From NCBI RefSeq assembly GCF_036697365.1, contig NZ_JBAHZA010000002.1:390549-454548 (forward strand): a DNA stretch of 64,000 nucleotides. Reading direction: 5' to 3'. The translations under genes and the position numbers were made by a program. The stretch comes from Psychromonas arctica (GTDB lineage Bacteria > Pseudomonadota > Gammaproteobacteria > Enterobacterales > Psychromonadaceae). A model generated the notes under the pieces. That model did no database searches. It saw only the letters and a program-made list of their open reading frames with translations, and was not told the DNA's origin. Positions 14,947 to 62,055 of this stretch are shown in pieces. Positions within the stretch are counted from its first letter, which is position 1. Every line of letters begins with the position of its first letter.

Positions 14947-14981
14947 ACCATTAATTAAAAATAAACAACCGAGGAATTTAT

Positions 14982-36757: not shown

Positions 36758-38275
36758 ATGAATAAAAAAACAATACTTATGATTTTAGATGGCTGGGGCA
36801 CTTCACCAGATCCTAAAGTATCAGCACCAGACAATGCGAACATTCCATTTTTAGATTCTTTATATAAAGATTACCCTAATGCCTCATTACGCACTGACGG
36901 AGAACATGTTGGTTTACCGACGGGTCAAATGGGTAATAGTGAAGTTGGGCATATGAACCTTGGCGCAGGACGCATTGTGTACCAAGACTTAGCAAAAATT
37001 AACATGGCAGTAGCAGATAACACGTTAGCAAAAGAACCTGTTTTAGTTGATGCACTGCAATATGCCAAAGATAATAACAAAGATGTACACTTCTTAGGTC
37101 TTTTAAGTGACGGTGGCGTACACTCCCACTCAAGTCATTTAAAAGGCTTTATCGACGCAGCAGAACAAGCGGGTATAAAAAACGCTTATGTTCACGCATT
37201 TTCTGATGGTCGTGATGTAGACCCTAAATCAGGAAAAGGCTCTATTGCTGATTTGCAAAACTACATTAAAAATACCAATACTCAAATAGCGTCAATCACA
37301 GGTCGCTACTACGCAATGGACAGAGACAATCGCTGGGAGCGAGTACAACTAGCTTATGATGCACTGGTTAATGGTGTTGGTGTAAAAGCCACAGATCCAA
37401 TCAGTGCAATTGAACAAAGTTATGCCGATGGTGTTACTGATGAGTTTGTTAAACCAATTATCTTAACTGATGAGCAAGCACAGCCTAAAGCAACGATTAA
37501 AAAAGATGATGTGGTTATATTCTTTAACTTCCGTACCGACCGTGGTCGTGAATTAACTCAAATGTTAAGCCAACAGGACTTTCCTGAGCAGAATACCGCT
37601 AAACTTGATTTATATTACGTAACGATTACTAACTACAGCGATGACTTTGAAAATGTAAAAGTCATCTACGACAAAGACAATATCAGTGAAACACTTGGTG
37701 AAGTATTAGAAAAAAACGGTAAAAAGCAAATTCGTATTGCCGAAACTGAAAAATACCCACACGTTACGTTTTTCTTTTCTGGTGGTCGAGAAGAGCCTTT
37801 TGAAGGCGAATCACGTATCTTAAAAAACTCACCAAAAGTAGCGACGTACGATTTAAAACCTGAAATGAGTGCATACGAATTACGTGATGCATTAGTACCA
37901 GAACTAAACAAAGGTGAAGCTGACTTTGTTTGTCTTAACTTTGCAAACGGCGATATGGTCGGTCATACAGGCATGATGGATGCAGCAATTAAAGCCTGCG
38001 AAGCAGTAGATGAATGTGTTAAAGATGTTGTTACTGCTGCGCTTGCTAATGACTACACTACATTAATTATTGCCGATCACGGTAACTGTGAAACCATGAT
38101 GAATCCAGATGGTAGTCCACATACTGCACACACAACAAACCCTGTGCCAGTAATTCTAGTGGATAAAGACCTGAAGAGTATTGAAGACGGTGTGTTAGGT
38201 GATATGGCACCAACCATATTAAAGTTAATTGGCGTAGAACAACCTGCTGCAATGACTAGACACTCACTGATTTAG
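36758..38275 (+). CDS. gpmI: 2,3-bisphosphoglycerate-independent phosphoglycerate mutase
   Basis: 505 aa. N-terminus LMILDGWG, with the SDGGVHSH and DHGN motifs of iPGM. Confidence 0.95.
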   Translation: MNKKTILMILDGWGTSPDPKVSAPDNANIPFLDSLYKDYPNASLRTDGEHVGLPTGQMGNSEVGHMNLGAGRIVYQDLAKINMAVADNTLAKEPVLVDALQYAKDNNKDVHFLGLLSDGGVHSHSSHLKGFIDAAEQAGIKNAYVHAFSDGRDVDPKSGKGSIADLQNYIKNTNTQIASITGRYYAMDRDNRWERVQLAYDALVNGVGVKATDPISAIEQSYADGVTDEFVKPIILTDEQAQPKATIKKDDVVIFFNFRTDRGRELTQMLSQQDFPEQNTAKLDLYYVTITNYSDDFENVKVIYDKDNISETLGEVLEKNGKKQIRIAETEKYPHVTFFFSGGREEPFEGESRILKNSPKVATYDLKPEMSAYELRDALVPELNKGEADFVCLNFANGDMVGHTGMMDAAIKACEAVDECVKDVVTAALANDYTTLIIADHGNCETMMNPDGSPHTAHTTNPVPVILVDKDLKSIEDGVLGDMAPTILKLIGVEQPAAMTRHSLI

Positions 38276-38299
38276 CCGAGGCGCATCAAGAGCTAACGA

Positions 38300-38326
38300 C
38301 AGGGTAGGAAACTACCCTGCTTTTAA
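38300..38326 (+). terminator. rho-independent terminator of gpmI
   Basis: cagggtag-gaaa-ctaccctg followed by cttttaat. Confidence 0.7.
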
Positions 38327-38856
38327 TGATAACCATGACATACTTCCTGAATGCCTACTTCATTTTTCATTCTCTAATTCATTTAATCTTAACAATACTA
38401 TAAGCGATAAATTCTGATTTATACTGTTTTGTAAATAGTTAAATATTACGTTAATAGACCTATAATTATTAGTAAATTGATATTCAAATACAGGCTGTAA
38501 CAATAGTATTCATAATTTTAATCTGTTCAACACAAACTAAAAAAACAAGCTGATTTTAATACCTCATAACCCTAATTCTGATTAGGCAGCCTCCAAAACA
38601 CTTCAAATAATGATTTAATTTTAAATAACCTTTATATTTAAAAAATAAATTAAATTTATTGTTTTGACTTTATTTATACTTTTTAGTAAATTTCTCGAGT
38701 TACGCACAAATGTAATAAAGCCACCAAATAATACTTTTCTCGTTTAATTGTTTACCCAAAAATATTTATACCTATTTAATAAATATTAAACGTCCAAGTA
38801 GAAATGTTTTACCCCCAAAAAATAACAACACGAACTAAACACATAAAGGAACATTT

Positions 38857-39492
38857 GTGGAACACTTCCTCATTAACATAACAAGCTACCCAACTGTTAT
38901 CTACACAACATTATTATTAATAATATTATTATTCTGGCTACTAACAGTGGTTGGTTTATTCGACATGGATATTTTAGATGTTGATATCGACTTAGACACC
39001 TCTGAAGTCGGTGGCGCACTAGGGGTGCTTGTTACATTAGGGTTAACAGGAGTACCTGTCACTTTAGTACTTAGCATACTTATTTTATATAGCTGGACAC
39101 TTTGTTCAATATTGTCACTATTTATTGGTCACTTCGATTGGGATTATGGCGTATTAACTTTCCTTTTAAATACTTTTATTTTGATCGCTACTGGTGCCCT
39201 TTCTATCCCACTTACCGCTAAAACAATTAACCCACTTAGACCACTATTTCGAGCTTTTAATCAAGGCCCTATACAAGAAACCTTAATGGGTAAAGAAGCA
39301 CGAGTACGCACTACAAAAATTGACGAAAATTCAGGTCAGATTGAATGTTCTCGTGATGGAGCTAGTTTAATACTCAACGCAAGATCAGGTAGCGCAAAAC
39401 AATATTTATACGGTGAAACAGTAATCATCATCGACTTTAAAGAAATTGACAACATGTACATTGTCGTTAGTAAACAAGAATTCAATCAATAA
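38857..39492 (+). CDS. YqiJ/NfeD-like inner-membrane protein (DUF1449, C-terminal OB-fold)
   Basis: 211 aa. Three or four TM helices, then a soluble C-terminal beta-rich domain. It sits immediately upstream of a flotillin gene, matching the E. coli yqiJ-yqiK arrangement. Confidence 0.6.
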   Translation: MEHFLINITSYPTVIYTTLLLIILLFWLLTVVGLFDMDILDVDIDLDTSEVGGALGVLVTLGLTGVPVTLVLSILILYSWTLCSILSLFIGHFDWDYGVLTFLLNTFILIATGALSIPLTAKTINPLRPLFRAFNQGPIQETLMGKEARVRTTKIDENSGQIECSRDGASLILNARSGSAKQYLYGETVIIIDFKEIDNMYIVVSKQEFNQ

Positions 39493-39507
39493 TACGGAGC
39501 TCAAACC

Positions 39508-41565
39508 ATGGATACTAGTATCTTAATAACAATAGGGACTGCGGTCCTTGCTGTCATTGCCATTATTACTTTATTGGCAATGACATTTAGTGCCTTTTAT
39601 AAAAAAATCAGCCAAGGTCATGCGATGATCGTGAATGACATGTCTTCTAAACCAAAGGTACATTTTACAGGTGGCATGGTCTTACCGGTTGTACACAAGA
39701 TGGAAATAATGAAAATTTCATTAATTACACTTGAAATCGACCGTCGTGGTAGCGATGGATTAATTTGTAAAGACAACTTACGTGCTGATATTACTGTTGC
39801 CTTTTACTTACGTGTAAATGAAACACGTGATGATGTATTGAAAGTAGCAAAAGCCATAGGTGTTGATCGAGCATCTGACAAAGATGCTGTTAACGAGTTA
39901 TTTAATGCTAAATTTTCTGAAGCATTAAAAACTGCCGGCAAAGGGATGGACTTCCTTGAGCTTTTTGAAAATCGTATGGGCTTTCGTGAAAAGATTGTCA
40001 CTGTTGTAGGTAATGATCTTAACGGTTATGTATTAGAAGATGTGGCAATTGATTACTTAGAGCAAACACCAAAATCTAGTTTAGATCCAAACAACATTTT
40101 AGACTCTGAAGGTATTCGTAAAATTACCGAAAAAACCGCAGTACAAAATATTGAAACTAACCGTTTAGAAAAAGATGAATCTCTTTCTATTACCAAAAAG
40201 AACGTAGAAACACGTGAAGCAATGTTAGCGTTAGAGCGTCAAGAAGTTGATGCAGAATCTAAACAGAAACGTGAGATAGAAACAGTAAAAGCACGTGAAG
40301 AAGCTGAAACACATAAAATTCAACAGGAAGAACGCAGCAAGTCAGAACAAGCTCAACTAGAAGCCGATGAACAAATTGCCATTCGAGACCAAGTAAAATT
40401 ACGTCAAGTTGAGATCGCAGAACAAAGTAGAGAACGTGCTGTTATTATCGAAAAAGAAAAAGTCATTCGCGCACAAGAAATGGAAATTGTGAATCGTAAA
40501 CGCGAAGTTGAATTATCAGAAATTGATAAAGAAAAAGCACTGGAAGAAGAGCGTAAAATTATTGCTCAAACAATCAGTGAAAGAATTGCAGTAGATCGTA
40601 AAGTAGCTGAAGAAGAAGAAAGAATTAAAGAAGTACAAGAAGTCTCTGAAGCTGATCGTCTAAAACAAATTACTATCATAGAAGCAGAAGCTAAAGCACA
40701 AGAAGAATTACTTCGTGTTGTCAAACAAGCTGAGGCAGATGAACAAAAAGCTGAACATAAATCTCGTGAAATTAACTTAATGGCACAAGCTAACCTTGAA
40801 GTAGCGTCTAAAGAAGCTGAATCAATTAAGAAACTAGCCGAAGGTACTCAAGCAGAACAAGCAGCGAATGGTTTAGCTGACGCAAAAGTATTAATAGCAA
40901 AAGCTGATGCAACTGAAAAAGAAGGATTAGCAAAAGTTCGAGTAGAGGAAGCGCAAGCCAAAGCAACAGAAATGACAGGTCTTGCAGAAGCTAAAGTACT
41001 TGAAGAAAAACTAACAGCTGAAGCTCGTGGTAATGAAGGATTGGGTAAAGCAGAGGCTGTTGCCAAACGTGAAGTTGGTCTGAGTGAAGCAGAAGTCTTA
41101 ACTGAAAAAGGCAGAGCAGAAGCGGTATCTAAACGTGAGATTGGTGTTAGTGAAGCAGACATTATTCGCGAGAAAGGTAAAGCTGAAGCAGATGGTCTAA
41201 TTGAAAAATTCGCTGCAATGAACAACATGAGTAAAGAAAGCAGAGAGTTTGAAGAATTCCGTATGAACCTTGAAATAGAATTCAAACAAACATTAGCTAA
41301 TATCGAAGCTAACAAAGAGATTTCAAGCGATCAAGCAAGCGTATTAGGTGCCGCACTGAAACATGCGAATATCGATATTGTAGGTGGTCAAGGTGAATAC
41401 TTTGACAAGCTGTATAAAGGTTTAGGAGCAGGTAATGCAATTAACGGTTTCTTAGAAAAGAGCCCTGTTATCCAAAGCTTGATGGAGAAATTATTGGCGG
41501 GTACCTCAAATGAAAAAGAGATAAACCAACCAATCGTAGAAACAACGAAGACACCTGAGGTTTAA
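39508..41565 (+). CDS. flotillin family protein (SPFH/Band-7, YqiK/FloT-like) with extended C-terminal EA-repeat coiled coil
   Basis: N-terminal TM helix followed by an SPFH domain (MIVNDMSSKPKVHFTGGMVLPVVHKMEIMKISLITLEIDR...). It has a long Glu/Ala/Lys-rich heptad region and tandem ~20-aa repeats (GLAEAKVLEEKLTAEA / VGLSEAEVLTEKGRAEA / IGVSEADIIREKGKAEA). Confidence 0.85.
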   Translation: MDTSILITIGTAVLAVIAIITLLAMTFSAFYKKISQGHAMIVNDMSSKPKVHFTGGMVLPVVHKMEIMKISLITLEIDRRGSDGLICKDNLRADITVAFYLRVNETRDDVLKVAKAIGVDRASDKDAVNELFNAKFSEALKTAGKGMDFLELFENRMGFREKIVTVVGNDLNGYVLEDVAIDYLEQTPKSSLDPNNILDSEGIRKITEKTAVQNIETNRLEKDESLSITKKNVETREAMLALERQEVDAESKQKREIETVKAREEAETHKIQQEERSKSEQAQLEADEQIAIRDQVKLRQVEIAEQSRERAVIIEKEKVIRAQEMEIVNRKREVELSEIDKEKALEEERKIIAQTISERIAVDRKVAEEEERIKEVQEVSEADRLKQITIIEAEAKAQEELLRVVKQAEADEQKAEHKSREINLMAQANLEVASKEAESIKKLAEGTQAEQAANGLADAKVLIAKADATEKEGLAKVRVEEAQAKATEMTGLAEAKVLEEKLTAEARGNEGLGKAEAVAKREVGLSEAEVLTEKGRAEAVSKREIGVSEADIIREKGKAEADGLIEKFAAMNNMSKESREFEEFRMNLEIEFKQTLANIEANKEISSDQASVLGAALKHANIDIVGGQGEYFDKLYKGLGAGNAINGFLEKSPVIQSLMEKLLAGTSNEKEINQPIVETTKTPEV

Positions 41566-41723
41566 TTAACCTCTTCCTACTCAGTACTTAATCGTTTAAT
41601 AAGGAATGTTCATATTCAACCAACCTGATTAAACGATTACCTGAGTAGCGATTCATTTAATATATTTACATATAGTCAGAGCCCTGCTCTGACTTGTCAA
41701 TTAAAGCTGTTTAGGAAGTAATT

Positions 41724-44700
41724 GTGACTGATAAATCAATGATAGTAGAACAAGCCGTCGCACAAGGTGGCGCTTATGAAATCATTCGTAAACGTCTTGA
41801 AGATCAAGGCAACCAACTAGATAGCTTAACTCAACAACTCAACTTAGATAGACAAAAAGAATTCGGCACTACTGAAATGAAAGTGTTGGGTCGTACTCGT
41901 ATTCGAACAGAACATAATTGCCAAGCAACAGACTTGGTTATCGTTGGTGATTATGTTCTATTTGGTTATAATGTTTTTCTAGGTTTAAAAAAACAAACAG
42001 TACTAAGTGATGTACTCTCACTATTTCAATTAGAGCAAGTCGAACAGCAATATGAACTGAAGCAAGTTGACTTAGATAGCTCATTTCTCTCAGACCCTCG
42101 ATTTATTACTGAATTCCAAGAAGTATATGCATACTACAAAGATGCTACCCTTTCTCAATTAGTATTGAGAAACAATAAACTGTTAGCGGCCTTCAAGATT
42201 GGTGAAAAACTAACAGATATTCGAGTATTTCGCTGGCAAGTAAATGGTAATGATATCGAGTACATCGATAATCGTGGTGAACGAGATTTAAAATTACCTG
42301 ATACACACGACTTTCAATGGAATCGCTGTGGTCGTGAAGATATTATCGATGGGCGTAACCCACATGTTAATGTCCTTGATACCCTTTTTATTGACAGTTT
42401 ACGTGGTGATATCACCATAAAAGTTGAAGATAATACTAATGTGGGACAAGGTATTTACAGCGAACCAGTACAAGAAAGTAATCAGTCAATTAACGATGCT
42501 GAATTTTATTATGCAGATCTTGATCCCATTATTTTATTGAAAATAAGACCTTATCAAGAAGAAAATTATCGATACCTCCTTTTCAATAAAAAAAACCAAG
42601 ATATAAAACGAGTTGATGCTATTGGTGACTCTTGCCAGCAACTCCCGGAGAATCACGGTATTATTTTCCCTGGTGGTTATTACCTTACGACAGGTGAACT
42701 TAAAACTTTTGAGGATGATTTAGAAGGACTAGTTTTTAATAGCAGCATGAAATCACCTAATGGTGAAGATGTGTTATTCGTATTCTATCAACCACATACA
42801 AATATCGTGGCGTTATACCCATATAATTTAATCAATAAGTCATTACAAAATCCAATATTCGGGCATGGTTATGGTTTCTATGAAGATGGCCGTATGATCA
42901 TCTTTTATGCAGAACAAGAAGCAAGCCGTATTCATCCTGTGCAAATTTGGCAAACCGCTTATTACTCAGATGTTTTTGCTAGCCAACAAATTCAGTCCCC
43001 TACCTTCTTCGGGAAAATTGGTAACACCGATCTGGTTCGTGGTATTTCAGAGTTATATACCATCTCAAAGAGTATTCACCAAGAAGCCAGCTCTGCTAAT
43101 CATTACAATGATTTAATCAAACATTGTGCCACTATTTTTGATGCTTATTACTGGTTAGACAGCAAAGAACTTGAGCCAATTCGCAACCTGCTTTATACCG
43201 TAAAAGAAACTTCAGAAGCCGTGATTGATGAATATGAAAAAGTAGAAAGTATTCGTAAACAATCAGACAAAGCATTAAGTGAAGCAAACAAAAAACAAGT
43301 AGAAATATTACGTCAGATTCAGCCTGGTAGTTGGCGTTCACCACAGGAATTTGTGGATGGCTTGAATACCATCTCAGCACAACAAGGACATTTATTAACG
43401 ATTAGAGAATATCGTTATATTGATGTAGAAGCGATTGATGAATTGAACCAAAAGCTGACTAAAACCAGTGAAGAACTGAATCAAAGAACGGTTGAATTTT
43501 TATCGTCTGATGATGCGTTGAAAAGTTATTACAGCGACCTTGAACAGATTATATCAAGCAGTGAAAAGGCCCAATCAACTGCAGAACTATCACCTCAAAT
43601 AGACGCATTGAACGATATTTCACAAGGGTTGGATCTCATTAGTCAGATCATGGCTTCATTAAAAGTATCCGATGCCACCATGCAAACACAAATTGTTGAT
43701 GCAGTCTCTACACTTTACAGCAAAATTAATCAGCAAAAAGCTCAGCTCAGCCACCAGCAAAAGAGTTTTGGTAGCCACGAAGCACAAGCTCAGTTTTCAG
43801 CTAGATTAAAACTATTAAATCAAACTATTCATAACGCATTAAGTCTTTCAACATCACCCGATAAATGTGATGAGCAATCAGCAAGGTTAATGGTACAAGT
43901 TGAAGAGTTAGAAAGTGAATTCAGCGAATATGATCAATTCATTGGCGATATTGTCACAAAGCGTGATGAAATATTTGAATCTTTTGAAACACATCGTCAA
44001 TCGCTTATTGAAACAAGACAACGCAAAGCACAATCACTAGAAGATGCTGCAAAACGTATTTTATCTTCTGTGACTAAACGTATTAATCGTTTTACTGAAG
44101 CCAGTGAAATGAATACTTTTTTTGCTGCTGATAGTTTAATCAATAAAATTCGCGATATTATTGAGCAACTGAACCAGCTTGATAGCTCAGTTAAAGCCGA
44201 AGATGTTGATGCAAAACTCAAAGCTATTAAAGCACAAGCACTCCGTTCTTTACGTGATAAAAGTGACTTATTTGAGGAAGGCGGCAATGTCATCAAGTTA
44301 GGCCCGCGCCACAAATTCTCAGTCAATAAACAAGCCTTAGATTTAAGCCTTTTAGCAAAAGATGAACAAATGTATGTTCGGCTTACCGGTACTGATTATG
44401 AACAAGTGATACAAAACGCTAAATTAGATGACTTAAAACCTTATTGGAACATACATTATCCATCTGAAACAAATTTACTATATCGTAGTGAGTTCTTAGC
44501 TTATTCGGTTTTACAAGCAGCGATTAATCAAACTGATGGCTTAACCTGGCAATCACTTAGCGCTGTAGTGGGAAGCCAAGATTTACTCTCTAAATTAGTC
44601 AGTGAATTTGCGAGTACGCGTTATAAAGAAGGCTATGAAAAAGGCATACATGATTTTGATGCCACATTAATATTAACCAAATTATTCCCAGCTTATGAAA

Positions 44701-46628
44701 CCGCAGGGGTATTTGTTCACAGCCCATTTGCGAGAGGGTTAGCGTGTATTTTTTGGGCGAATACTCAAACAGAAAAGCCTCAAACACTTTGGCATCAAGC
44801 GTGTAAAAACGCCGCTCAAATGCAACGTCTTTTTGGTCAGTTAACCGCTAAAACGACAATCATTAATGAAATTCAACAATCATTAAGCGCTTTTCTCGTA
44901 AAACATCAGTTTGCTGTGCCAACACAAATCATTTCACGTGCAAGTGAATACTTAAGTGAAGAGCTTGCAAAAGATCAAGTTAACTTTGACACCAGTAAGT
45001 ATGCACGTCGTTTGTGTGATGATTTTACAACATATTTAAATACACATGATGTATGGCAAGACTACTTAAAATTATTGAACGAATTACAAGGCGAAACGGG
45101 TAAACGTTGGCAATTAACAGAAAGTTGGTTAACAGCATTTGTTGAGTCACAAGGTAAAACAGACTTATATGAATTTATCGGTGAAGCCATTGGTATCCTT
45201 AATGCAGAAAAACGTATCGACAGAAATGACCGTGAAGTTGATATTCAGTTTACCATTACAGGATTGCTAGGTAATCATCCGCTTATTAAAGAACAAGCAT
45301 TAACCATTCAACTGCCTGATTTTCTGGATCGTAACAATCATTTCCATCAACAAGTGCTACCAAAATACTTAGATTACTTAAGTACGCGCCAACAGGTTAT
45401 GGATGAACAAAAGTCACTACTTCGTTTAGAAGAGTTTAAAGCAAAACCACTTTCATCATTTGTACGTAACCGTCTAATTTCAGATTCTTATTTACCGTTA
45501 ATTGGTGATAACCTCGCCAAACAAATGGGCACAGTAGGGAGCAGTAAGCGTACGGACTTGATGGGATTATTATTAATGATTTCACCGCCTGGTTACGGTA
45601 AAACCACCTTGATGGAGTATGTCGCAGATCGTCTTGGCTTGATATTCATGAAAATTAACTGCCCTGTTATTGGCCATTCAGTGACATCCGTTGATCCAAA
45701 TGGCACAACCGACAGCGCAGCAAAACAAGAACTAGAAAAGCTCAATCTAGCTTTAGAAATGGGCAGTAATGTGATGTTATATCTAGATGATATTCAACAT
45801 ACCAACTCAGAATTCTTACAAAAGTTCATTTCGCTTTGTGATGGCACAAGAAAAATTGAAGGCGTTTGGCAAGGTAAAACCAAAACCTATGACATGCGCG
45901 GTAAAAAGTTCTGTGTTGTGATGGCCGGCAACCCCTACACTGAAACTGGTGAGACATTCCAAATTCCAGATATGTTAGCCAACCGAGCAGATATTTATAA
46001 TCTAGGTGATGTATTAAGCGGTAAAGAAGAGGTGTTTAATCTAAGTTATATTGAAAACGCCCTATCTTCCAATGCAATATTAGCACCTTTAGCCAGTCGT
46101 TCGATGGATGATGTGTATAAATTTGTTGATATGGCAGAGGGTAAAAATGTGGCGAGTACTGACTTTAGTCACCAATATAGTGCTGCTGAAAGTAAAGAGA
46201 TAGTCACCGTATTGCAAAAGCTACAACAAATACAGAGCGTGGTTGCTATCGTCAATAAACAATACATTCAGTCAAGCGCACAAGATCCTAAATACCGTAC
46301 AGAGCCTCCATTCAAGTTACAGGGTTCATATCGTAATATGAATAAAATGGCTGAGAAGATCTCTGCCATTATGACCGATAAAGAATTGGCCGACTTGGTT
46401 GATGACCATTACCAAGGTGAATCGCAGTTATTAACAACAGGCACTGAAGCGAATCTGTTAAAACTAGCTGAATTACGTGGATTATTAACCTCAGAAGATA
46501 ATAAACGTTGGGCCTCTATAAAAGCTGACTTCAAACGTAATTTAGCAATGGGTGGCGATGAAACAGATAGCGGACAACAAATTGTCGGTCAATTGAATGA
46601 CATTGTTAATGCGATTAACAATAAATAA
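41724..46628 (+). CDS. 1634-aa multidomain protein with C-terminal MoxR/AAA_5-type AAA+ ATPase module; function unknown
   Basis: Walker A LLMISPPGYGKTTL, Walker B VMLYLDDIQH, sensor-1 CVVMAGNP, Arg-finger region LANRADIYNL. The N-terminal ~480 aa is beta-rich. The centre (~aa 480-1000) is predicted long alpha-helical/coiled coil. The gene is co-oriented with the flotillin operon, 158 bp downstream of it. Confidence 0.6.
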   Translation: MTDKSMIVEQAVAQGGAYEIIRKRLEDQGNQLDSLTQQLNLDRQKEFGTTEMKVLGRTRIRTEHNCQATDLVIVGDYVLFGYNVFLGLKKQTVLSDVLSLFQLEQVEQQYELKQVDLDSSFLSDPRFITEFQEVYAYYKDATLSQLVLRNNKLLAAFKIGEKLTDIRVFRWQVNGNDIEYIDNRGERDLKLPDTHDFQWNRCGREDIIDGRNPHVNVLDTLFIDSLRGDITIKVEDNTNVGQGIYSEPVQESNQSINDAEFYYADLDPIILLKIRPYQEENYRYLLFNKKNQDIKRVDAIGDSCQQLPENHGIIFPGGYYLTTGELKTFEDDLEGLVFNSSMKSPNGEDVLFVFYQPHTNIVALYPYNLINKSLQNPIFGHGYGFYEDGRMIIFYAEQEASRIHPVQIWQTAYYSDVFASQQIQSPTFFGKIGNTDLVRGISELYTISKSIHQEASSANHYNDLIKHCATIFDAYYWLDSKELEPIRNLLYTVKETSEAVIDEYEKVESIRKQSDKALSEANKKQVEILRQIQPGSWRSPQEFVDGLNTISAQQGHLLTIREYRYIDVEAIDELNQKLTKTSEELNQRTVEFLSSDDALKSYYSDLEQIISSSEKAQSTAELSPQIDALNDISQGLDLISQIMASLKVSDATMQTQIVDAVSTLYSKINQQKAQLSHQQKSFGSHEAQAQFSARLKLLNQTIHNALSLSTSPDKCDEQSARLMVQVEELESEFSEYDQFIGDIVTKRDEIFESFETHRQSLIETRQRKAQSLEDAAKRILSSVTKRINRFTEASEMNTFFAADSLINKIRDIIEQLNQLDSSVKAEDVDAKLKAIKAQALRSLRDKSDLFEEGGNVIKLGPRHKFSVNKQALDLSLLAKDEQMYVRLTGTDYEQVIQNAKLDDLKPYWNIHYPSETNLLYRSEFLAYSVLQAAINQTDGLTWQSLSAVVGSQDLLSKLVSEFASTRYKEGYEKGIHDFDATLILTKLFPAYETAGVFVHSPFARGLACIFWANTQTEKPQTLWHQACKNAAQMQRLFGQLTAKTTIINEIQQSLSAFLVKHQFAVPTQIISRASEYLSEELAKDQVNFDTSKYARRLCDDFTTYLNTHDVWQDYLKLLNELQGETGKRWQLTESWLTAFVESQGKTDLYEFIGEAIGILNAEKRIDRNDREVDIQFTITGLLGNHPLIKEQALTIQLPDFLDRNNHFHQQVLPKYLDYLSTRQQVMDEQKSLLRLEEFKAKPLSSFVRNRLISDSYLPLIGDNLAKQMGTVGSSKRTDLMGLLLMISPPGYGKTTLMEYVADRLGLIFMKINCPVIGHSVTSVDPNGTTDSAAKQELEKLNLALEMGSNVMLYLDDIQHTNSEFLQKFISLCDGTRKIEGVWQGKTKTYDMRGKKFCVVMAGNPYTETGETFQIPDMLANRADIYNLGDVLSGKEEVFNLSYIENALSSNAILAPLASRSMDDVYKFVDMAEGKNVASTDFSHQYSAAESKEIVTVLQKLQQIQSVVAIVNKQYIQSSAQDPKYRTEPPFKLQGSYRNMNKMAEKISAIMTDKELADLVDDHYQGESQLLTTGTEANLLKLAELRGLLTSEDNKRWASIKADFKRNLAMGGDETDSGQQIVGQLNDIVNAINNK

Positions 46629-46712
46629 AAACCCAGATGCATATAATAACTAAAAGCAATAATGCGTTTATCGCTGTGGTTATAAATAATATGACTTTGA
46701 TTGGTTTGATAT

Positions 46713-46757
46713 AACTCACTTATTGCTTCCTTACTAAGGTAGTAAGTGAGTTTTTAC
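46713..46757 (+). terminator. rho-independent terminator ending the yqiJ-flotillin-ATPase operon
   Basis: ctcacttattgcttccttactaaggtagtaagtgag followed by ttttt. Confidence 0.65.
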
Positions 46758-46784
46758 TCGTAATAAAAATTAACTAAGGATTTA

Positions 46785-47060
46785 TTGATGGCTCTTATCC
46801 ATACAACCAGAGATCATAATTTACCGATTTCAGTCTTAAAACAAAAAATTGATAACATAGCCGCGGAGTTAGCCACTGAATATCAACTAACAAGTGAATG
46901 GGAAGATAACTGTCTTTTTTTTCGTCGTAAAGGGGCAAGTGGAAGTATTGAAATTGACGCACAAAGCTTAGAGTTGAATCTAACCCTTGGGGCGCTATTT
47001 AAAGTCGCGAAAAACGATATAGAATCAAAAATAAACAAGATGTTAGATACGCATTTGTAG
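46785..47060 (+). CDS. polyhydroxyalkanoic acid system family small protein (TIGR02610-like)
   Basis: 91 aa. The pattern ELATEYQLTSEWEDNCLFFRRKGASGSIEID...LELNLTLGALFKVAK...IESKI matches the conserved ~90-aa PHA-system family. Confidence 0.5.
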   Translation: MMALIHTTRDHNLPISVLKQKIDNIAAELATEYQLTSEWEDNCLFFRRKGASGSIEIDAQSLELNLTLGALFKVAKNDIESKINKMLDTHL

Positions 47061-47116
47061 TGGTCAGTAAACCTGGCCACGGATTGATAGTCAGTTATTA
47101 GTCGTAAGTAAGTTAC

Positions 47117-47488
47117 TCACTTACTTTTATCTAAAACAGTATAAGAGTGCTCAGGTAACTCAAACATCGCCCCTGTTACAGGATCGACCACGAGCATACC
47201 AAGAAAGCTAATAATGAGAATATTACCAAAATACCATTCATCTAAATTACTGTCTATTATCACTGTTTTTTCAATATACCCTTTTTTGTTTAAAGTGAGC
47301 GTGTACGTCTCTCCTTTATAAAATCCAGAGGACGCATTTAGTATAAGTGAAATAGGCGTTGTACCCGTATGTATTAATGCCCCACTTCTATTTTTAAGTG
47401 TGATATGAGCGTGACTAGGTTCACTGGTAATTTCAACTAAATATCGACGTTCACTAACAATACTTGAACATCCTGATAAAAACGACAC
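47117..47488 (-). CDS. lipoprotein, hypothetical
   Basis: Lipobox-like MSFLSGCSS at the N-terminus. 123 aa. Confidence 0.45.
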   Translation of the reverse strand: MSFLSGCSSIVSERRYLVEITSEPSHAHITLKNRSGALIHTGTTPISLILNASSGFYKGETYTLTLNKKGYIEKTVIIDSNLDEWYFGNILIISFLGMLVVDPVTGAMFELPEHSYTVLDKSK

Positions 47489-47739
47489 GATCAGAATCGC
47501 CAGAATAAAATGAATTATAAATTTTCCATAAATGCTTAAAACAGTGAAAAATACTGAAGTAATATAATTTAATAAACACAGTCATCAATAATAATTAAAA
47601 TTAATTTATAGTGAACACGATCAGAAAGTAACAAATAAATCATAATAACCATTTATTGTTTGCTAATGAATATTACGCGCTTATCCCAAGTAACACTTAA
47701 TGATATGATTACACAACAAAAAATACCAAGGTACAAGCG

Positions 47740-48855
47740 ATGACAAACACTGATGAGATTATTGAAATTGAAAACCAAGATGAGCTAAATTTAGCTGTTC
47801 GTCCTGTTTATATGGAAAATGACATCAACGTTCGTATTGCAAAAGAACAATCGAGCGTATTTGAACTACTTCGCCGTGAAAAACGCGGTGATCTTATCTT
47901 AGCCCCTGACTTTCAAAGAAACGATGTTTGGGATTTAAAACATAAATCAGAGTTAATCGAGTCCATTCTAATGGGATTTCCGATCCCTTTAATTTATCTT
48001 TTTGAAAATGAAAACGGTATTAGACAAGTAGTCGATGGTAAGCAGCGAATTAGCGCCCTAAAAGCGTTTCTCAATAATGAATTCGCCCTCACAACACTAT
48101 CAATGTTGCCAGACCTAAAAGGTAAAACCTTTGATGATATACGCCCTCTTTCACAAGCAAAGCTAGAAGATTACCAATTACATACTTATGTGATTCAACC
48201 TCCCACTCCGGAGTTTGTAAAATTTAATATTTTTGAGCGTGTTAATCGAAGTGGTATCAGCATTAATAAACAAGAGATGCGACACGCCTTGTATCAAGGT
48301 AAAGCGACTGATTTACTGCAAGTACTAGCAGAAAGCACCGCATTCAAGCTGTGCACTGATAATGGGGTAAAACCAGATCGAATGCGTGACCGCTATTTAC
48401 TATTACGTTTTATCGCTTTTTATCTATTAAAGGCAGAACAAACACCTACAACCAATATTGAATACAAGTCAGATATTGACTCTTTTCTCGCCGCTACAAT
48501 GGCATATTTAAACGAGAAAGCATCTGATGAATTAATTCAACATATTACACAAACTTGTTTGCAAGGTATGCACAATATTTACCAAATAATAGGCGATCAG
48601 GCTTTTCGTTTTGATAGCAAAGCCTCGGCACATAAACGCCCTATCAATATCGGATTATTCGAAATGTTAGTCTTTGCATTTGGCCATATAGAGCTCGATA
48701 AAGTGAACATAGAAAAGGCTAAAAATCTCATTAAAGAGAAAAAAGCTTATCTCGATGAGCAAGGTATTTTTGGTGGTAGCATCGATACTATTGAACATGT
48801 AACAATGCGGTTTAACACTGCTCTAGAAATAACGGAAGGATTAACCAATGCTTAA
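47740..48855 (+). CDS. DUF262 domain protein (ParB/Srx-like, GmrSD N-terminal nuclease/NTPase fold)
   Basis: Motifs DFQRNDVW and the DGQQR-type VDGKQRISAL, plus the hydrophobic pattern (ILMGFPIPLIY) characteristic of DUF262. Confidence 0.8.
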   Translation: MTNTDEIIEIENQDELNLAVRPVYMENDINVRIAKEQSSVFELLRREKRGDLILAPDFQRNDVWDLKHKSELIESILMGFPIPLIYLFENENGIRQVVDGKQRISALKAFLNNEFALTTLSMLPDLKGKTFDDIRPLSQAKLEDYQLHTYVIQPPTPEFVKFNIFERVNRSGISINKQEMRHALYQGKATDLLQVLAESTAFKLCTDNGVKPDRMRDRYLLLRFIAFYLLKAEQTPTTNIEYKSDIDSFLAATMAYLNEKASDELIQHITQTCLQGMHNIYQIIGDQAFRFDSKASAHKRPINIGLFEMLVFAFGHIELDKVNIEKAKNLIKEKKAYLDEQGIFGGSIDTIEHVTMRFNTALEITEGLTNA

Positions 48856-49897
48856 GCAACTCGATATTACTAACTTAAAAAGTATTAGTAAAACATCATT
48901 AAAACTTGCTCCTTTAACCATTCTAGCAGGGGCAAATTCCGCAGGTAAGTCCACGGTGATGCAATCACTGATGTTATTAATTAAACATAGCGGATCAAGC
49001 AATCGCTTTAGTATGGAAGAACTATTACGTTACATGAACGATTTCTCAGCTATCCGCAATAAGAGAAACAATGCCAGATCATTAAATATCACCGCCATCG
49101 ATCATCAAGATAAATCCCATCAGATCAACATTAATGCAGATGGCGTAGAAGCTGATAGTCAATTACAGTACATTTATGAGCCGCCAACAAAAATCGCTGA
49201 ACAAGAGCTGCTTTACCTAAATGCAAACCGTATTGGCGCACAAGAATTAGTACCCGTAGCAGATCGTAAAATAGGCTTATTAGGAGAATTTGTTTTTCCT
49301 ACTTTTGATAAAGTGAAAGGTAATATTTTACCCGATGAACTGTTAAAGTTTGAAGGTTCTAAAACCATTTCATACCAACTTAGTCAATGGTTAGCGTTTA
49401 TCACAGGTACTTCGTTAGAACTGCAAACAGAAAAAACAAGCGATCAAGTTAAAGTGTCTTTCAACGTAAAAGATATAGACAGTCAAGTATCCCCTTACAA
49501 TTTGGGTGCTGGCATGAGTGATGTAGCCAAGGTACTCATTGTGTGTTTAATGGCTAAAAAAGGCGATTTAATTTTAATTGAAAATCCAGAAGTACAACTT
49601 CACCCTAAAGCACAAGCCCTATTAGGTGTATTCCTCGCGTTTATCGCCAGTTCAGGCATTCAACTCATTATTGAAACACACTGTGAGCACTTAATTAATA
49701 AAGTAGCTTATCAAGTGTATGAAGATGAAATAGAGAGTGGAGATGTTGTCATCCATTACAAAGGACATGTAGAAGAAGACTTTCAAGCAATCACTATTGA
49801 CCTGAATGGTGAGTTCAACGATCTAGAAGGTAACATTATTAGCTTCCCTGCAGGCTTCTTCGATGTCACCTTGACTGACTTGATGGACATGAGGTAA
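48848..49897 (+). CDS. ABC-like AAA_21/AAA_15 family ATPase with DUF3696-type C-terminus
   Basis: Walker A LTILAGANSAGKST. Walker B/D-loop DLILIENPEVQLHP. H-loop IIETHCEHLI. Its start overlaps the upstream gene by 8 nt. Confidence 0.8.
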   Translation: MLKQLDITNLKSISKTSLKLAPLTILAGANSAGKSTVMQSLMLLIKHSGSSNRFSMEELLRYMNDFSAIRNKRNNARSLNITAIDHQDKSHQININADGVEADSQLQYIYEPPTKIAEQELLYLNANRIGAQELVPVADRKIGLLGEFVFPTFDKVKGNILPDELLKFEGSKTISYQLSQWLAFITGTSLELQTEKTSDQVKVSFNVKDIDSQVSPYNLGAGMSDVAKVLIVCLMAKKGDLILIENPEVQLHPKAQALLGVFLAFIASSGIQLIIETHCEHLINKVAYQVYEDEIESGDVVIHYKGHVEEDFQAITIDLNGEFNDLEGNIISFPAGFFDVTLTDLMDMR

Positions 49898-49904
49898 TTC
49901 GATA

Positions 49905-50654
49905 ATGGCTGAAAAAATGGTTCTCAGCACCTCTTTATTGATTGCCTATGAAAACATGGCGTTTGATGCTCGTCAGTATCAAAAAAAGTATAAGCGTTTA
50001 ATGAAAACCTTATCTTTACCCTATAAAACCAATAAAAGGCAGTTAATTGAGGCAAAAAGCCAAGGGCTTAACGACGTTACTTACAATCGGTTAATGCCTC
50101 AGTTACAGCATCAATCTAATAGAGATGATTCGCTTGAAATGTTGGCAATGAACACCAGTTTAAAAATCATTCTAACGGAAGATAAAGCCGCTAAATTGCC
50201 CTATGTATTTTATCGCTCATCGTTTCTTAGTAATGAATTATCAATTAGTTTGAAAGCAGATGATAGCCGTACTGATTTGGTTAAATACCTACAAATACTG
50301 TGTGCGAGCGCGACTAAAATCACCATTTGTGATAACTACTTTGCACAAGGCTGGGACAACACTCAAAGTTTATTCAGGTTCATATTACCCCGCCATAAAC
50401 TTCAAATAGAATATGTCGAAACCCCACGAGTCATTACAGTGACAAAGAATAGTGCAAAAATGAGTGAACGATTCATGCATAGCATTTGTAAAGAGTGGTC
50501 TATCTGTGAAAGCACAAAATATAAAGGTTCTCACGATCGCTATCTTCTGATTGAATCCCCTCAAGGCAACATTGAAGTAATGCTTTCAAGTGGGTTTGAT
50601 CATATTTGGAAGAGTCGTCCCAAAGAGATTACTTGTGTTATTCGAGAAGCCTAG
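49905..50654 (+). CDS. hypothetical protein, third gene of DUF262-ATPase operon
   Basis: 249 aa with no motif I can recognise. It starts 7 nt after the ATPase gene stop. Confidence 0.5.
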   Translation: MAEKMVLSTSLLIAYENMAFDARQYQKKYKRLMKTLSLPYKTNKRQLIEAKSQGLNDVTYNRLMPQLQHQSNRDDSLEMLAMNTSLKIILTEDKAAKLPYVFYRSSFLSNELSISLKADDSRTDLVKYLQILCASATKITICDNYFAQGWDNTQSLFRFILPRHKLQIEYVETPRVITVTKNSAKMSERFMHSICKEWSICESTKYKGSHDRYLLIESPQGNIEVMLSSGFDHIWKSRPKEITCVIREA

Positions 50655-51322: not shown

Positions 51323-52918
51323 ATGCCTTTGTTACCTACGACTGTACGACCATTTACCTTAAAAAAAATAATCTTTATTAGCTGCTTATTACCTGGCGTT
51401 GCTTTCTCTAAAGTGCCTTTTAATGCGAATACTGATCCAGTACAAACATCGAATAATACAAAAATTCTTTATGCTGTTGATGGTAAATTTGATCGTAATA
51501 CAGTGGTTTCTATAGCGCGTGACTTAGCTAGCAAACCATATCAAGAACCTAATTTGACATTGCCTGCTGAATTGCAAGACTTGAATTATGACCAATACAG
51601 AGACATTCGCTTTAATCCTAATGCTGCTATATGGAAAGATGAATCGTTACCTTTCCAAATGCAGCTCTTTCATCGTGGCTTTTATTTTAAAGAGACTGTG
51701 GAAATTGCGATCGTAGAGAATGGTCAATCAAAGCACTTACGCTACCAACCTGATATGTTTACAACGGGTGATGTTATGCAGAAAACGTTGCCAAATGCAG
51801 ATGTTGGTTTCGCTGGTCTACGTTTACACAACCCATTAAATACCCCTGATTATTATGATGAAGTAGCGGTTTTTCAAGGTGGTAGCTATTTTCGCTCCCT
51901 CGGTAAAAATGAAGGTTATGGTCTGTCATCACGTGGTTTAGCGCTCAAAACCGCTGATCCTGAAGGAGAGGAATTTCCAGCTTTTCGAGCATTTTGGATT
52001 GAAAAGCCAGCCAATGACAGTAATTCAATTGTTGTTTATGCCTTATTAGATAGCCCAAGTACAACCGGTGCCTATCGCTTCACAATCCGTCCAGGTGACA
52101 ATACCGTGATGGATGTAGAAGCCACTTTATTCCCACGTGAAGATTTAGATAAAGTAGGATTAGCAGCTGGTACAAGTATGTTCATGTTCTCTTCATACGA
52201 ACGAGAACAAGTCGATGATTTCCGACCTCGTGTTCACGATTCAGATGGGTTATTAATGATTAATGGACGCGGTGATAGATTATGGCGCCCCTTACGTAAC
52301 CCTAGAAATTTAGAAGTCAGTGCATTTAGTGACAACGGGCCTATTGGCTTTGGCTTGATACAACGTAATCGTGATTTTAATAACTTCCAAGATTTAGAAG
52401 CTAATTATCAACAACGCCCAAGTTTATGGGTTGAACCTCTTGGTAATTGGGCAAGAGGATCTGTCGTTTTAGTTGAAATCCCGACAGAGTCTGAGGTCAA
52501 TGATAATATTGTTGCTTATTGGTCTCCTAGTGAAGTCATTCCTGCCGGATCTGAATATCAGTTTGCATACCGATTACTCTGGGGCGAAGCTCCATCAGTA
52601 AAGAAAGATGAAGCTATTGTCGAAGCAACACGAAGCGGTCGAGCGAGTATTAATGGCCCGACGGAGAAGCGCTTATTTGTTGTCGACTATCGTTTTCCTA
52701 ATCCTTCAAATCATATCGCCACTCAAAAACCAACCACATCAATTGAAAACACCGCAGGTGAAATACACAATGTGGTTATTACTGAAAACCACCAGGATGG
52801 TTATCGTGTTACTTTTGAACTTGACCCACTTGATGCTGAATTAATTGAGCTTCGATTAGCATTACAATTTGCCGATGGTAGAAAAGCTGAAAATTGGATG
52901 TATCAATGGACAAAATAA
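51323..52918 (+). CDS. opgG: glucan biosynthesis protein G (periplasmic, OPG synthesis)
   Basis: 531 aa. Signal peptide, and the MdoG-family conserved regions (FRAFWIEKP, WRPLRNP, GFGLIQRNRDF). Confidence 0.9.
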   Translation: MPLLPTTVRPFTLKKIIFISCLLPGVAFSKVPFNANTDPVQTSNNTKILYAVDGKFDRNTVVSIARDLASKPYQEPNLTLPAELQDLNYDQYRDIRFNPNAAIWKDESLPFQMQLFHRGFYFKETVEIAIVENGQSKHLRYQPDMFTTGDVMQKTLPNADVGFAGLRLHNPLNTPDYYDEVAVFQGGSYFRSLGKNEGYGLSSRGLALKTADPEGEEFPAFRAFWIEKPANDSNSIVVYALLDSPSTTGAYRFTIRPGDNTVMDVEATLFPREDLDKVGLAAGTSMFMFSSYEREQVDDFRPRVHDSDGLLMINGRGDRLWRPLRNPRNLEVSAFSDNGPIGFGLIQRNRDFNNFQDLEANYQQRPSLWVEPLGNWARGSVVLVEIPTESEVNDNIVAYWSPSEVIPAGSEYQFAYRLLWGEAPSVKKDEAIVEATRSGRASINGPTEKRLFVVDYRFPNPSNHIATQKPTTSIENTAGEIHNVVITENHQDGYRVTFELDPLDAELIELRLALQFADGRKAENWMYQWTK

Positions 52919-55071
52919 TTGTGCATGACACTCCTTTATCTGAACCAGATATTGTTGAACCAGGTATGCCAAAAGAGCATTTTGAGGCGATGCCAGTTCA
53001 ATCTTTAAGCGACTATGATACAAGTAACAAACGCACTCCCATCAACCCTAAGGGAGTTAAATCCCAAGTATTAAGAAGATGGTTAGTTTTAGGATCATCA
53101 CTTTTATTGTCTATATGGGGAGTCAATGAAATGCATACCGTGCTCGGTGCGGATAATATGACTTTCATTCAATACCTCTTTCTTATTTTATTCGCTTTGA
53201 CTTTTAGCTGGATCACCGTTGCCTTTAGTGGCTCAATTGTTGGTTTTTTCTTAGTCTGTGCTCAACGCCTCCAAAAACCTAAGCGCTTAACAAATACACT
53301 CGTTGGCCGAACCGCGGTATTAATGCCAACCTATAACGAAGATCCTGATCGTATTTACGCAGCGATTGAAGTGATGGCAGTAGAAATCGCTGAATCAGGG
53401 GAAAGTAAAGCATTTGATTGGTTTGTTATTAGTGACACAACAGATCCAGAGATAGTACTCAAAGAAGAAGCAGGTTTTCATACATTACGCCAACGAATAA
53501 GCCACTCTACAAACGTTTATTATCGTCGACGCCAAAACAACACAGCAAGAAAAGCAGGTAATGTTTCTGATTTTTGTAAACGCTGGGGAGCGAGTTACGA
53601 CCACTTATTAGTGTTAGATGCCGATAGCTTGATGGAAGCAGATACCATGCTGGAATTAGCTCGTCGTATGGAGGCTGATCCTGATTCTGGTTTAATTCAA
53701 ACCATCCCTCAATTAATAAATGGCACCACCTTAATCGCTAGGTTACAACAGTTTTCTACTTGTGTTTATGGCCCCATTGTCGGTACTGGGCTTGCTTGGT
53801 GGACTCATAAAGAAGGCAACTTCTGGGGACATAATGCCATTATACGTACTAAAGCAATGATGTCGGCTGCTGGCTTGCCAGATCTTAAAGGCGCTCCACC
53901 ATTTGGTGGGCATATTTTAAGCCATGACTTTGTAGAAGCATCATTGATTAGACGTGCTGGTTGGAGTGTGACTATTGCAGCAGACCTTTATGGTTCATAC
54001 GAGGAATGCCCACCATCTATCACCGACTTAGCAATTCGAGATCGTCGTTGGTGCCAAGGTAATTTACAACATGGCCGTATTATCACTGCAAAAGGCTTAC
54101 ATTGGGTGAGCCGTAGTCATTTATTAACGGGAATCATGTCATACCTATCATCACCTTTGTGGTTGATGTTAATTCTAGTCGGGCTAGCACTTTCTTTACA
54201 GGCTGAATATATTCGTCCAGAGTATTTTAGCGACCAATTCTCGTTATTTCCTACTTGGCCTCAAATGGATGCCGCGCGTGCCCTAAGCTTATTTGCCTTT
54301 ACCATGGTGATACTTTTCACACCAAAAACCTTAGGCTTAATCTCCTATATGATCCACAGTCCTTTAAGAAAACGTTGCGGTGGATTTTTCATTTTGATGC
54401 TCAGCTTTATTGTCGAAATTATTTTATCAGCAATGCTCGCTCCTATCATGATGCTTATTCATACTGGCGCAGTCTTTTCTATCTTGATTGGCCAAGATTC
54501 TGGTTGGAACCCACAACGCCGCGACGATGGTAGCTTACCCGTTAAGCATTTAATCTACAGACATCGTTGGCACATGATTGTGGGATTATTATTAACAGTG
54601 GCTGGTTACCTCAACTCACTCGCATTATTAGCTTGGTTGTCCCCGGCTATTTTAGGAATGCTGTTATCGGTGCCATTATCACTATTAACCGGGTCATGGG
54701 CCGTTGGTAATGCTGTTAAGAAATCAACAATATTATCTACGCAATACGAGAAAGAAAAACCAATAATTCAGCAAGCGATGGATGATACAAGAAGTGTCTA
54801 TCAAACTGCTGTCAATAATGCGCCTGATTTAATTGAAATAGCTGCAAACCCTAAATGGCGTGCAGTACACCTCTCCCTGATGGACTCAATTCCATTAAGA
54901 GCGCGTGGTCAAATAAATGTAGTTGAAGCAACTGCAACAGTAAAAATCCTTGAAGCAACAACGATAGTCGAAGCTGTTAGTTACTTAAACAAACAAGAAC
55001 AAACCTGTGTATTAGGCACACCTGATTTATTTAAAAAGTTATCAAGTTTACCGCGATACTCGGAAAGTTAA
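52906..55071 (+). CDS. opgH: glucans biosynthesis glucosyltransferase H (GT2)
   Basis: Motifs MPTYNEDP, LVLDADSLM, GHNAIIRT, DRRWCQGN and multiple TM helices match OpgH/MdoH. It overlaps the opgG stop. The ORF track starts at 52894. Confidence 0.9.
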   Translation: MDKIIVHDTPLSEPDIVEPGMPKEHFEAMPVQSLSDYDTSNKRTPINPKGVKSQVLRRWLVLGSSLLLSIWGVNEMHTVLGADNMTFIQYLFLILFALTFSWITVAFSGSIVGFFLVCAQRLQKPKRLTNTLVGRTAVLMPTYNEDPDRIYAAIEVMAVEIAESGESKAFDWFVISDTTDPEIVLKEEAGFHTLRQRISHSTNVYYRRRQNNTARKAGNVSDFCKRWGASYDHLLVLDADSLMEADTMLELARRMEADPDSGLIQTIPQLINGTTLIARLQQFSTCVYGPIVGTGLAWWTHKEGNFWGHNAIIRTKAMMSAAGLPDLKGAPPFGGHILSHDFVEASLIRRAGWSVTIAADLYGSYEECPPSITDLAIRDRRWCQGNLQHGRIITAKGLHWVSRSHLLTGIMSYLSSPLWLMLILVGLALSLQAEYIRPEYFSDQFSLFPTWPQMDAARALSLFAFTMVILFTPKTLGLISYMIHSPLRKRCGGFFILMLSFIVEIILSAMLAPIMMLIHTGAVFSILIGQDSGWNPQRRDDGSLPVKHLIYRHRWHMIVGLLLTVAGYLNSLALLAWLSPAILGMLLSVPLSLLTGSWAVGNAVKKSTILSTQYEKEKPIIQQAMDDTRSVYQTAVNNAPDLIEIAANPKWRAVHLSLMDSIPLRARGQINVVEATATVKILEATTIVEAVSYLNKQEQTCVLGTPDLFKKLSSLPRYSES

Positions 55072-55128
55072 TTAGCAGAATTTATTCACCACAACGAATT
55101 TATCAAACCCAATGTATTGGAGATTTTT

Positions 55129-58438: not shown

Positions 58439-59019
58439 CTGAAGCCTATTGCCTTTGCATTCAAGTAATAAATGCAATCGATTAGGCTCGTTCTCATCAA
58501 CGGCTAATCACCACTAACTCAGCTATATTTTCAGGGACTAAGCATGTTTGTTCGCTCTGCCGACATTCAACTTAAACGGGTTTAGGATATAACTGATACC
58601 ACCGTTAACACACCTCTCATTGGTGGGTTGATAGTTAAGCTAATCATAAACGTATAAGACTAAATGGTAGCGATTAAAGACTGACGTTAATGCAGAAGGC
58701 ACATAACCAGATACATCAATATTAGAAGCCAATAATTTACCTGTTCAATCAACCATTGACGTCTACGTTCAAAAAATTTTTTATATATATCTTCCCCGCA
58801 AAAATAAGCGCGCGAATACAATATGAAATACAGTAATAATGAGGTGTATCCGATGACGATATCTAAGATTGGCGAGACTGAGTCATAACAACTACCTCTT
58901 AGCGTGCAAAAGTTACATGACTAAAAGGTTGAAGGCTACTTATGACTCGTCAAGTTTTATGGTTGTCCACGCTCTTTTCCGATTTACAAAGAGTTACCAT
59001 ATATGTTCACTATTTATTA

Positions 59020-59757: not shown

Positions 59758-59963
59758 ATTTGCTTCTTCTTTTTAATTGTTATGTTTATATTTTTTGCTG
59801 AAAACATCGATAAAGCCTTGAACTTCAATTACTATTTGCAACATATATTGTTCACATTATGCTCAATCGACTCACGGTTAAAAGTAATAACACACTCAAC
59901 ATTATTTATTAACTTACAAAATAGTACATCCATTAAAATTTTATGGCTGTCTACGATCTTTCG

Positions 59964-60461: not shown

Positions 60462-60549
60462 ACTATCCCAGATACAATAAAATAGCTTTTTAAAATCAGC
60501 GACCTGCGAGCAATAACCAACTGCCCTGCTTAAATAACTTATTATACAT

Positions 60550-60879: not shown

Positions 60880-60884
60880 ATATC

Positions 60885-62010: not shown

Positions 62011-62055
62011 TTATTTTACCTCACAAAACAATACACCCTGCTTTACGGGAGTAAT

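Follow-up and report, generated by a model that had tools for sequence, protein, structure and literature searches.

A trio of YqiJ-like protein, flotillin, and giant AAA+ ATPase in Psychromonas arctica: a compact form of a conserved and probably stress-related membrane module

Three co-directional genes in a 64-kb stretch of the Psychromonas arctica genome (hereafter, the window, within which gene coordinates are positions) encode a YqiJ-like membrane protein, a flotillin, and a giant AAA+ ATPase. In at least four phyla, evolution has kept the three genes together as a fixed unit, and a functional coupling of their products is strongly supported. The locus is the abbreviated form of a larger operon and comprises this trio plus a clade-specific PHA_gran_rgn protein; it is classed as such because the pair of genes for a CesT/Tir-like protein and PspA is missing from the window. 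We consider it likely that the locus belongs to a flotillin-centred membrane-stress module, linked to PspA and of the type of the bac operon of Pseudomonas aeruginosa, in which the scaffold would be remodelled at the expense of ATP. The coordinates and sizes of the three open reading frames (ORFs) given in a preliminary description of this DNA were reproduced by ORF calling, and its guesses at the three protein families turned out to be essentially right according to Pfam, BLASTP, and hhalign.

The coupling of the three genes is supported by the conservation of gene order. Eighty loci, mostly from gammaproteobacteria and one genome per species, were found by homology to the giant protein (49–83% identity); ORFs were called in each and searched with the window proteins. 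A flotillin gene immediately precedes the giant gene on the same strand in 74 loci, corresponding to 74 of the 75 informative ones, and a YqiJ-like gene precedes the flotillin gene in 71. Among the six loci devoid of an upstream flotillin gene, in five the giant gene lies at the edge of a contig, and the last one (L028) carries insertion sequence-like fragments at this place. A tblastn search of plasmids identified 13 further homologues of the giant protein from other phyla. In the four plasmid records examined (one from Deinococcus, two from Streptomyces, and one from Hymenobacter), a flotillin homologue is invariably encoded directly upstream (E = 1e-137 to 1e-203). The Hymenobacter plasmid shows the order Tir chaperone, PspA, DUF1449, flotillin, and giant protein. 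These gene orders uphold the coupling of the giant gene to flotillin claimed in the preliminary description, and published transcript and proteomic data from P. aeruginosa agree (PMC10948618).

The surroundings of the trio are more variable. According to the clustering of neighbours, genes for DUF2170 (CesT/Tir-like, YjfI-type) and PspA/IM30 proteins are found just upstream in about 51 loci, and in many loci a rhomboid-like membrane protein, a PLD-family protein, or a zinc-ribbon protein is encoded downstream. The trio stands alone, as in the window, in at least 14 loci, including that of Psychromonas sp. PT13, the closest genome. DNA homology between the window and PT13 extends over positions 38845–46618 and part of the next small gene, and the flanks are unrelated. 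As homology is confined to the module, these genes travel and persist as a unit.

The association of a flotillin with a giant AAA+ protein had been presented in the preliminary description as an undescribed system. This claim fails because Ravi et al. (2024; PMC11237479) already described the operon, including its abbreviated versions. It consists of a CesT/Tir–PspA pair, a flotillin with a transmembrane (TM) segment, a band-7 domain, and a coiled coil, a YqiJ/YuaF protein, and a beta-propeller AAA+ ATPase, and it sometimes includes a PLD hydrolase; abbreviated operons with the flotillin, YqiJ/YuaF, and sometimes the AAA+ ATPase are distributed more widely. These authors linked the module to the PspA (phage-shock) membrane-stress system and gave no experimental function. 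The window locus is an instance of their abbreviated class from which it does not differ in any essential respect.

The same protein set is found in the bac locus of P. aeruginosa, defined as PA3732–PA3729 (Mace 2008; PMC2587700) and later extended to bacABCDEF, PA3732–PA3727 or PA14_16140–16200 (Wallart et al. 2024; PMC10948618). In that study, reverse transcription polymerase chain reaction (RT-PCR) gave products over every junction from bacA to PA14_16200, including bacD–PA14_16190, revealing one transcript, and the proteins BacB to BacF co-accumulated 6- to 13-fold in a bacA mutant. PA14_16160 and PA14_16180 have been named short NfeD and PaFlo3, respectively (PMC13086221), PA3728 is listed as "ATPase" (PMC8190622), and PA3728–PA3732 rise together in phage-infected cells (PMC12041424). 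The 211-aa YqiJ-like protein of the window corresponds to BacC/PA3730 and its 685-aa flotillin to BacD/PA3729/PaFlo3. By its position, the giant protein is the putative counterpart of BacE/PA3728. We take PA14_16190/PA3728 to be the giant ATPase because this gene follows the flotillin gene, because the order is the same in Pseudomonas paraeruginosa, and because it is annotated as an ATPase; the P. paraeruginosa giant protein (locus L045) is 52% identical to that of the window. In many loci a rhomboid-like gene comes after the giant gene, and bacF, judged by its position, is probably this gene. The bac operon and the window locus are alike in the order and orientation of BacC, BacD, and BacE, the identity of the latter being given by gene order. 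They differ in that the window is devoid of bacA (DUF2170, CesT/Tir-like), bacB (PspA), and bacF, that no sigma-54 promoter was found in it, that its giant protein lacks the C-terminal tail, and that a PHA_gran_rgn gene follows. A homologous pair of NfeD-type and flotillin genes exists in Escherichia coli (yqiJK) and Bacillus subtilis (yuaF-floT). However, in E. coli K-12, yqiK is followed by sibD/ibsD and hldE and not by a giant ATPase gene.

The YqiJ-like protein (YqiJ/YuaF-like, short NfeD type) has N-terminal TM segments and a small beta domain at its C-terminus. Scans of the full-length sequence against Pfam, NCBIfam, and PADLOC gave no match. A profile built from 22 orthologues aligned with E. 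coli YqiJ over 136 columns (hhalign probability 95%, E = 3e-8) and retrieved nothing in a sequence search of the PDB. Two of these orthologues match YqiJ_N and one matches NfeD, all weakly (E about 0.002), and the orthologue from Hymenobacter bears the annotation "DUF1449 family protein".

The flotillin combines an N-terminal TM segment, an SPFH/Band_7 domain, and a long coiled coil rich in E, A, and K; the hydrophobic N-terminus is visible in the translation. The full-length protein had no match in the Pfam, NCBIfam, and PADLOC scans, and Band_7 (PF01145; E = 5e-11, residues 33–181) was detected only when residues 1–224 were scanned alone. It shares 27% identity with E. coli YqiK over 473 residues (BLASTP, E = 4e-43) and is longer than this protein (685 vs. 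553 aa). Its 123 C-terminal residues have no Pfam match, including to the Flot domain, at E values up to 10, and a PDB sequence search with the flotillin was without match.

Homologues of the giant protein number more than 4843. Pfam identifies DUF3686 (E = 5e-184), DUF7902, and a single AAA/AAA_5 module at residues 1283–1406, with both PF00004 and PF07728 above cut-off. AlphaFold (AF2) models were computed from alignments of 25 sequences for residues 1–800 and 801–1634, with predicted local distance difference test scores of 81 and 74.7, respectively. They delineate an N-terminal helix (residues 4–47), a beta-propeller corresponding to DUF3686 (about 53–410), a long helical and coiled-coil region of about 400 residues that includes DUF7902 (about 416–800), a confidently folded helical middle domain (about 870–1240), and one C-terminal AAA+ module (about 1250–1600). 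The catalytic residues of this module are invariant across the homologue alignment: Walker A GYGKTT (K1293), Walker B LYLDD (D1355/D1356), sensor-1 N1403, and the arginine finger R1421. Fold searches confirmed the AAA+ fold and returned only generic beta-propeller and AAA+ matches; the helical middle domain had none, and a PDB sequence search gave P-loop-level matches only. No TM segment and no protease domain were found in the giant protein. Its gene starts with GTG, preceded by a conserved AGGAAG ribosome-binding site.

The best superpositions of the AAA+ module are with NorQ and CbbQ, two members of the MoxR family. MoxR proteins are about 250–350 aa long and pair with VWA proteins. The giant protein is only 13–15% identical to NorQ and CbbQ, and the module encodes no VWA partner. 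The AAA+ modules of ClpB/ClpA, Lon, and RuvB show a similarity about as strong as those of MoxR proteins.

The most likely role of this protein set is in envelope stress, as a remodelling machinery that would use ATP to act at a flotillin scaffold in the membrane. Together, the YqiJ-like protein and the flotillin would build an SPFH cage or microdomain at the inner membrane, on its cytoplasmic side. The AAA+ module would mediate oligomerisation of the giant protein, whose propeller and coiled-coil arms might dock either on client proteins or on the coiled coil of the flotillin. Under envelope stress, ATP hydrolysis would then assemble, remodel, or dismantle the scaffold or its clients. Functional analogies would be the action of Vps4 on ESCRT-III or that of FtsH within the HflK/C cage. 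In HflK/C–FtsH, a membrane scaffold of the SPFH family cooperates with an AAA+ machine, FtsH being a membrane-anchored AAA+ protease. The resemblance to the module lies in a possible mode of working, as FtsH and the giant protein are not homologous outside the AAA+ core.

Several observations weigh against this proposal. There is neither a PspA nor a CesT/Tir gene in the 64-kb window; tblastn with eight members per family detected no homologue of PspA, CesT/Tir-like, or other accessory families in it. A PspA-linked role would therefore require a partner encoded beyond these 64 kb. The window copy of the giant protein is devoid of the C-terminal tail of the family, which may have altered its function. 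Finally, two stable hairpins in the flotillin–giant spacer could uncouple the expression of the two genes.

The missing tail was analyzed by comparison with related loci. The window protein ends at residue 1634 (stop codon at 46626–46628), whereas that of Psychromonas PT13 reads 89 codons further, to 1723 aa, and most of the listed homologues measure about 1750–1800 aa. Comparison with PT13 shows the spacer that follows the giant gene to be a decayed remnant of the 3' end of this gene, which encoded the C-terminal tail; a terminator-like hairpin (46713–46752) now lies in this remnant. As another database protein, 96% identical to that of the window, is also 1634 aa long, a sequencing error can be dismissed, and the truncation is a trait of the lineage. 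Most gammaproteobacterial homologues share the conserved tail motif PLVRxMDGKLDLDLxTHxKM. We scored its presence at the C-termini of loci L001–L080 with a jackhmmer profile. Tail and operon-encoded PspA occur together in 49 of the 68 loci with sufficient upstream sequence and are both absent from 12; two have PspA only, and five the tail only (Fisher's exact test, p = 6.5e-8, uncorrected for phylogeny). The window lineage has lost both.

The tail may be an interface with PspA, judging from this co-occurrence. The link is only suggestive because the Hymenobacter plasmid locus (L083) breaks the pattern: PspA is present and the tail motif is absent. A more specific proposal is that the giant protein is a dedicated ATP-driven remodeller of the flotillin cage and, in full operons, also of ESCRT-III-like PspA polymers, recognized through the tail motif. 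The gammaproteobacterial co-occurrence, with seven discordant loci, fits this proposal and the Hymenobacter locus contradicts it; we regard it as speculative and rather unlikely. If it were true, the giant protein would be a bacterial functional counterpart of Vps4, and the window locus a naturally minimal version from which PspA and the tail have both been lost.

The positions of the main features are given in table 1. The YqiJ-like and flotillin genes are separated by 15 nt, and the flotillin and giant genes by 158 nt (41566–41723). The gene located 5' of the module encodes a cofactor-independent phosphoglycerate mutase (iPGM), and a terminator-like hairpin separates the module from this housekeeping gene.

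Table 1. Features of the Psychromonas arctica locus (positions in the 64-kb window)
Feature	Position	Strand	Description
iPGM terminator-like hairpin	38300–38319	+	8-bp stem with 5 GC pairs, then CTTTT; minimum free energy (MFE) -14.4 kcal/mol, z = -4.0
Upstream intergenic region (leader)	38276–38856	+	581 nt, 26.7% GC
YqiJ-like gene	38857–39492	+	ORF of 211 aa
Flotillin gene	39508–41565	+	ORF of 685 aa
Hairpins of the flotillin–giant spacer	about 41575–41651 and 41674–41694	+	no U tract after either
Giant ATPase gene	41724–46628	+	ORF of 1634 aa
Spacer after the giant gene	46629–46787	+	159 nt; part of the stretch 46600–46787 compared with positions 14895–15172 of the PT13 locus (L001)
PHA_gran_rgn-family gene	46788–47060	+	90 aa; PF09650, E = 8e-23

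The spacer that separates the giant gene from the flotillin gene is structured (MFE -39.7 kcal/mol, z = -6.15) and contains two stable hairpins. The PT13 spacer (L001, 9839–9994) has the same two-hairpin layout with a different inner stem sequence. In all loci the two genes are non-overlapping and separated by 30–500 nt, so that translational coupling is never seen, and the spacers are often structured; their median z of -2.3, obtained with mononucleotide shuffles, is indicative only. This arrangement could be taken to mean that the giant gene is linked to the flotillin pair in function but transcribed separately, from its own promoter in the 158-nt spacer, with the flotillin transcript ending at the hairpins. 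However, a U tract is lacking after both hairpins, and a consensus scan of 41566–41723 found no promoter or terminator on the + strand. Furthermore, the P. aeruginosa RT-PCR product crosses the equivalent junction (PMC10948618), and PA3728 is induced together with PA3729–PA3732 (PMC12041424). A separate giant transcript thus seems improbable. In a common transcript, the structured spacer probably lowers the expression of the giant gene relative to that of the abundant scaffold protein. The hairpins are a candidate RNA processing or attenuation element, for which Rfam gave no match. At the same junction, the locus of a zetaproteobacterial metagenome-assembled genome (L005, 8024–9924) carries two near-identical genes of about 310 aa, taken by eye as Rpn/YhgA-like; it is the sole locus with a 2-kb gap at this place.

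According to the preliminary description, a strong terminator closes the three-gene unit. The hairpin itself is real: positions 46713–46752 fold with an MFE of -19.1 kcal/mol (z = -3.56; none of 200 shuffles was equally stable) and are followed by UUUUU. Owing to its AT-rich stem, it escaped the consensus terminator scan. It is not the end of the conserved unit, because the conserved PHA_gran_rgn gene comes after it. An AAGGA ribosome-binding site of its own precedes this gene. Its homologues start 2–100 nt after the giant gene in the six closest loci (L001, L002, L003, L004, L006, and L071), and DNA homology to PT13 picks up again inside the window gene, at 46881–47030. This position is conserved only in the closest clade, which consists of the Psychromonas and Kangiellaceae loci, making PHA_gran_rgn a clade-specific fourth gene of the module. 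A weak hairpin follows this small gene (47106–47126; MFE -10.3 kcal/mol, z = -1.7, then UUUUAU) and has the 11-mer ACTCACTTACT in common with one arm of the 46713–46752 hairpin. We rejected the idea that the latter is a repeated element, as its complete sequence occurs once in the window.

At the other end of the module, the leader presumably carries the promoter. Its AT-richness had been read as a sign of silenced or regulated expression; our data lend no support to silencing. Its GC content falls inside the range of the other intergenic regions of the window (24.7–37%), sigma-70-like matches are not commoner in it than in shuffled sequence, and a promoter search found no sigma-54 site. Rfam had no match in positions 38200–47800, which cover the leader, the module, and the spacers, and homology between the leader and that of PT13 ends 12 nt upstream of the start codon.

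The genomic context raises the possibility that the module is a membrane-associated antiphage defence system lying in a defence island. A complete NsnABC system is encoded 1.1 kb downstream (47740–50654; PADLOC E values of 5e-105, 9e-80, and 2e-87 for NsnA, NsnB, and NsnC, respectively). Module and NsnABC lie together between housekeeping genes (iPGM and mdoGH-like), the flanks of the module differ from those of its closest relative PT13, and PA3728–PA3732 are phage-induced in P. aeruginosa (PMC12041424). However, a general envelope-stress response would likewise show phage induction. None of the three proteins has a PADLOC match above threshold: the YqiJ-like protein and the flotillin have none at all, and the giant protein has only a sub-threshold P-loop match to mad8 (E = 0.0098). 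The recurrent neighbours in the 80 loci are PspA, CesT/Tir-like, rhomboid, PLD-family, and zinc-ribbon proteins, with housekeeping genes such as recJ nearby; these recurrent partners belong to envelope stress and not to defence. Finally, in contrast to patchily distributed defence systems, the family is near-universal in entire genera such as Pseudomonas. We therefore find the defence role entertained in the preliminary description quite unlikely.

Other features of this region deserve mention. Within the defence system, a GmrSD_N domain occurs in NsnA, and NsnB belongs to the AAA_15/AAA_21 ATPases. The interval that separates the module from NsnABC contains, on the - strand, an ORF of 123 aa (47117–47488) that is without Pfam match and may not be a gene. 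The variable segment holding the module and NsnABC is bounded by a cluster of mdoG, mdoH-like glycosyltransferase, and mdoD-like genes (51323–56667) related to osmoregulated periplasmic glucans. Further downstream, the region 59020–62394 contains, on the - strand, four small ORFs without Pfam match (59020–59757, 59964–60461, 60550–60879, and 61603–62010) and a further ORF at 62056–62394; positions 59001–62000 are AT-rich (30–33% GC).

An ATPase function of the giant protein in DNA repair, with an incidental position next to flotillin, as the wording "DNA repair ATPase" in the Pfam description of DUF3686 and in NCBI product names, a weak P-loop similarity to RuvB, and a LexA-family regulator gene upstream in the Hymenobacter locus might suggest, is highly improbable: domain-library scans found no nuclease, helicase, or DNA-binding domain in it, the similarity to RuvB is confined to about 45 residues around the P-loop (E = 0.002–0.2), no paper on DUF3686, or on a flotillin together with a DNA repair ATPase, turned up in the library searched, and adjacency to flotillin across phyla is hard to square with chance placement.

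With membrane-scaffold remodelling as the favoured role, the window adds no new kind of system: the module is already known, has been comparatively described, and is partly supported by experiment. It is very widespread, with homologues of the giant protein in Pseudomonadota, Actinomycetota, Deinococcota, and Bacteroidota, and the counterpart gene set of P. aeruginosa is tied to biofilm formation and virulence. The Psychromonas arctica locus, with its tail-less ATPase and without PspA and CesT/Tir, is a compact natural variant of this module and could serve as a minimal model for it.

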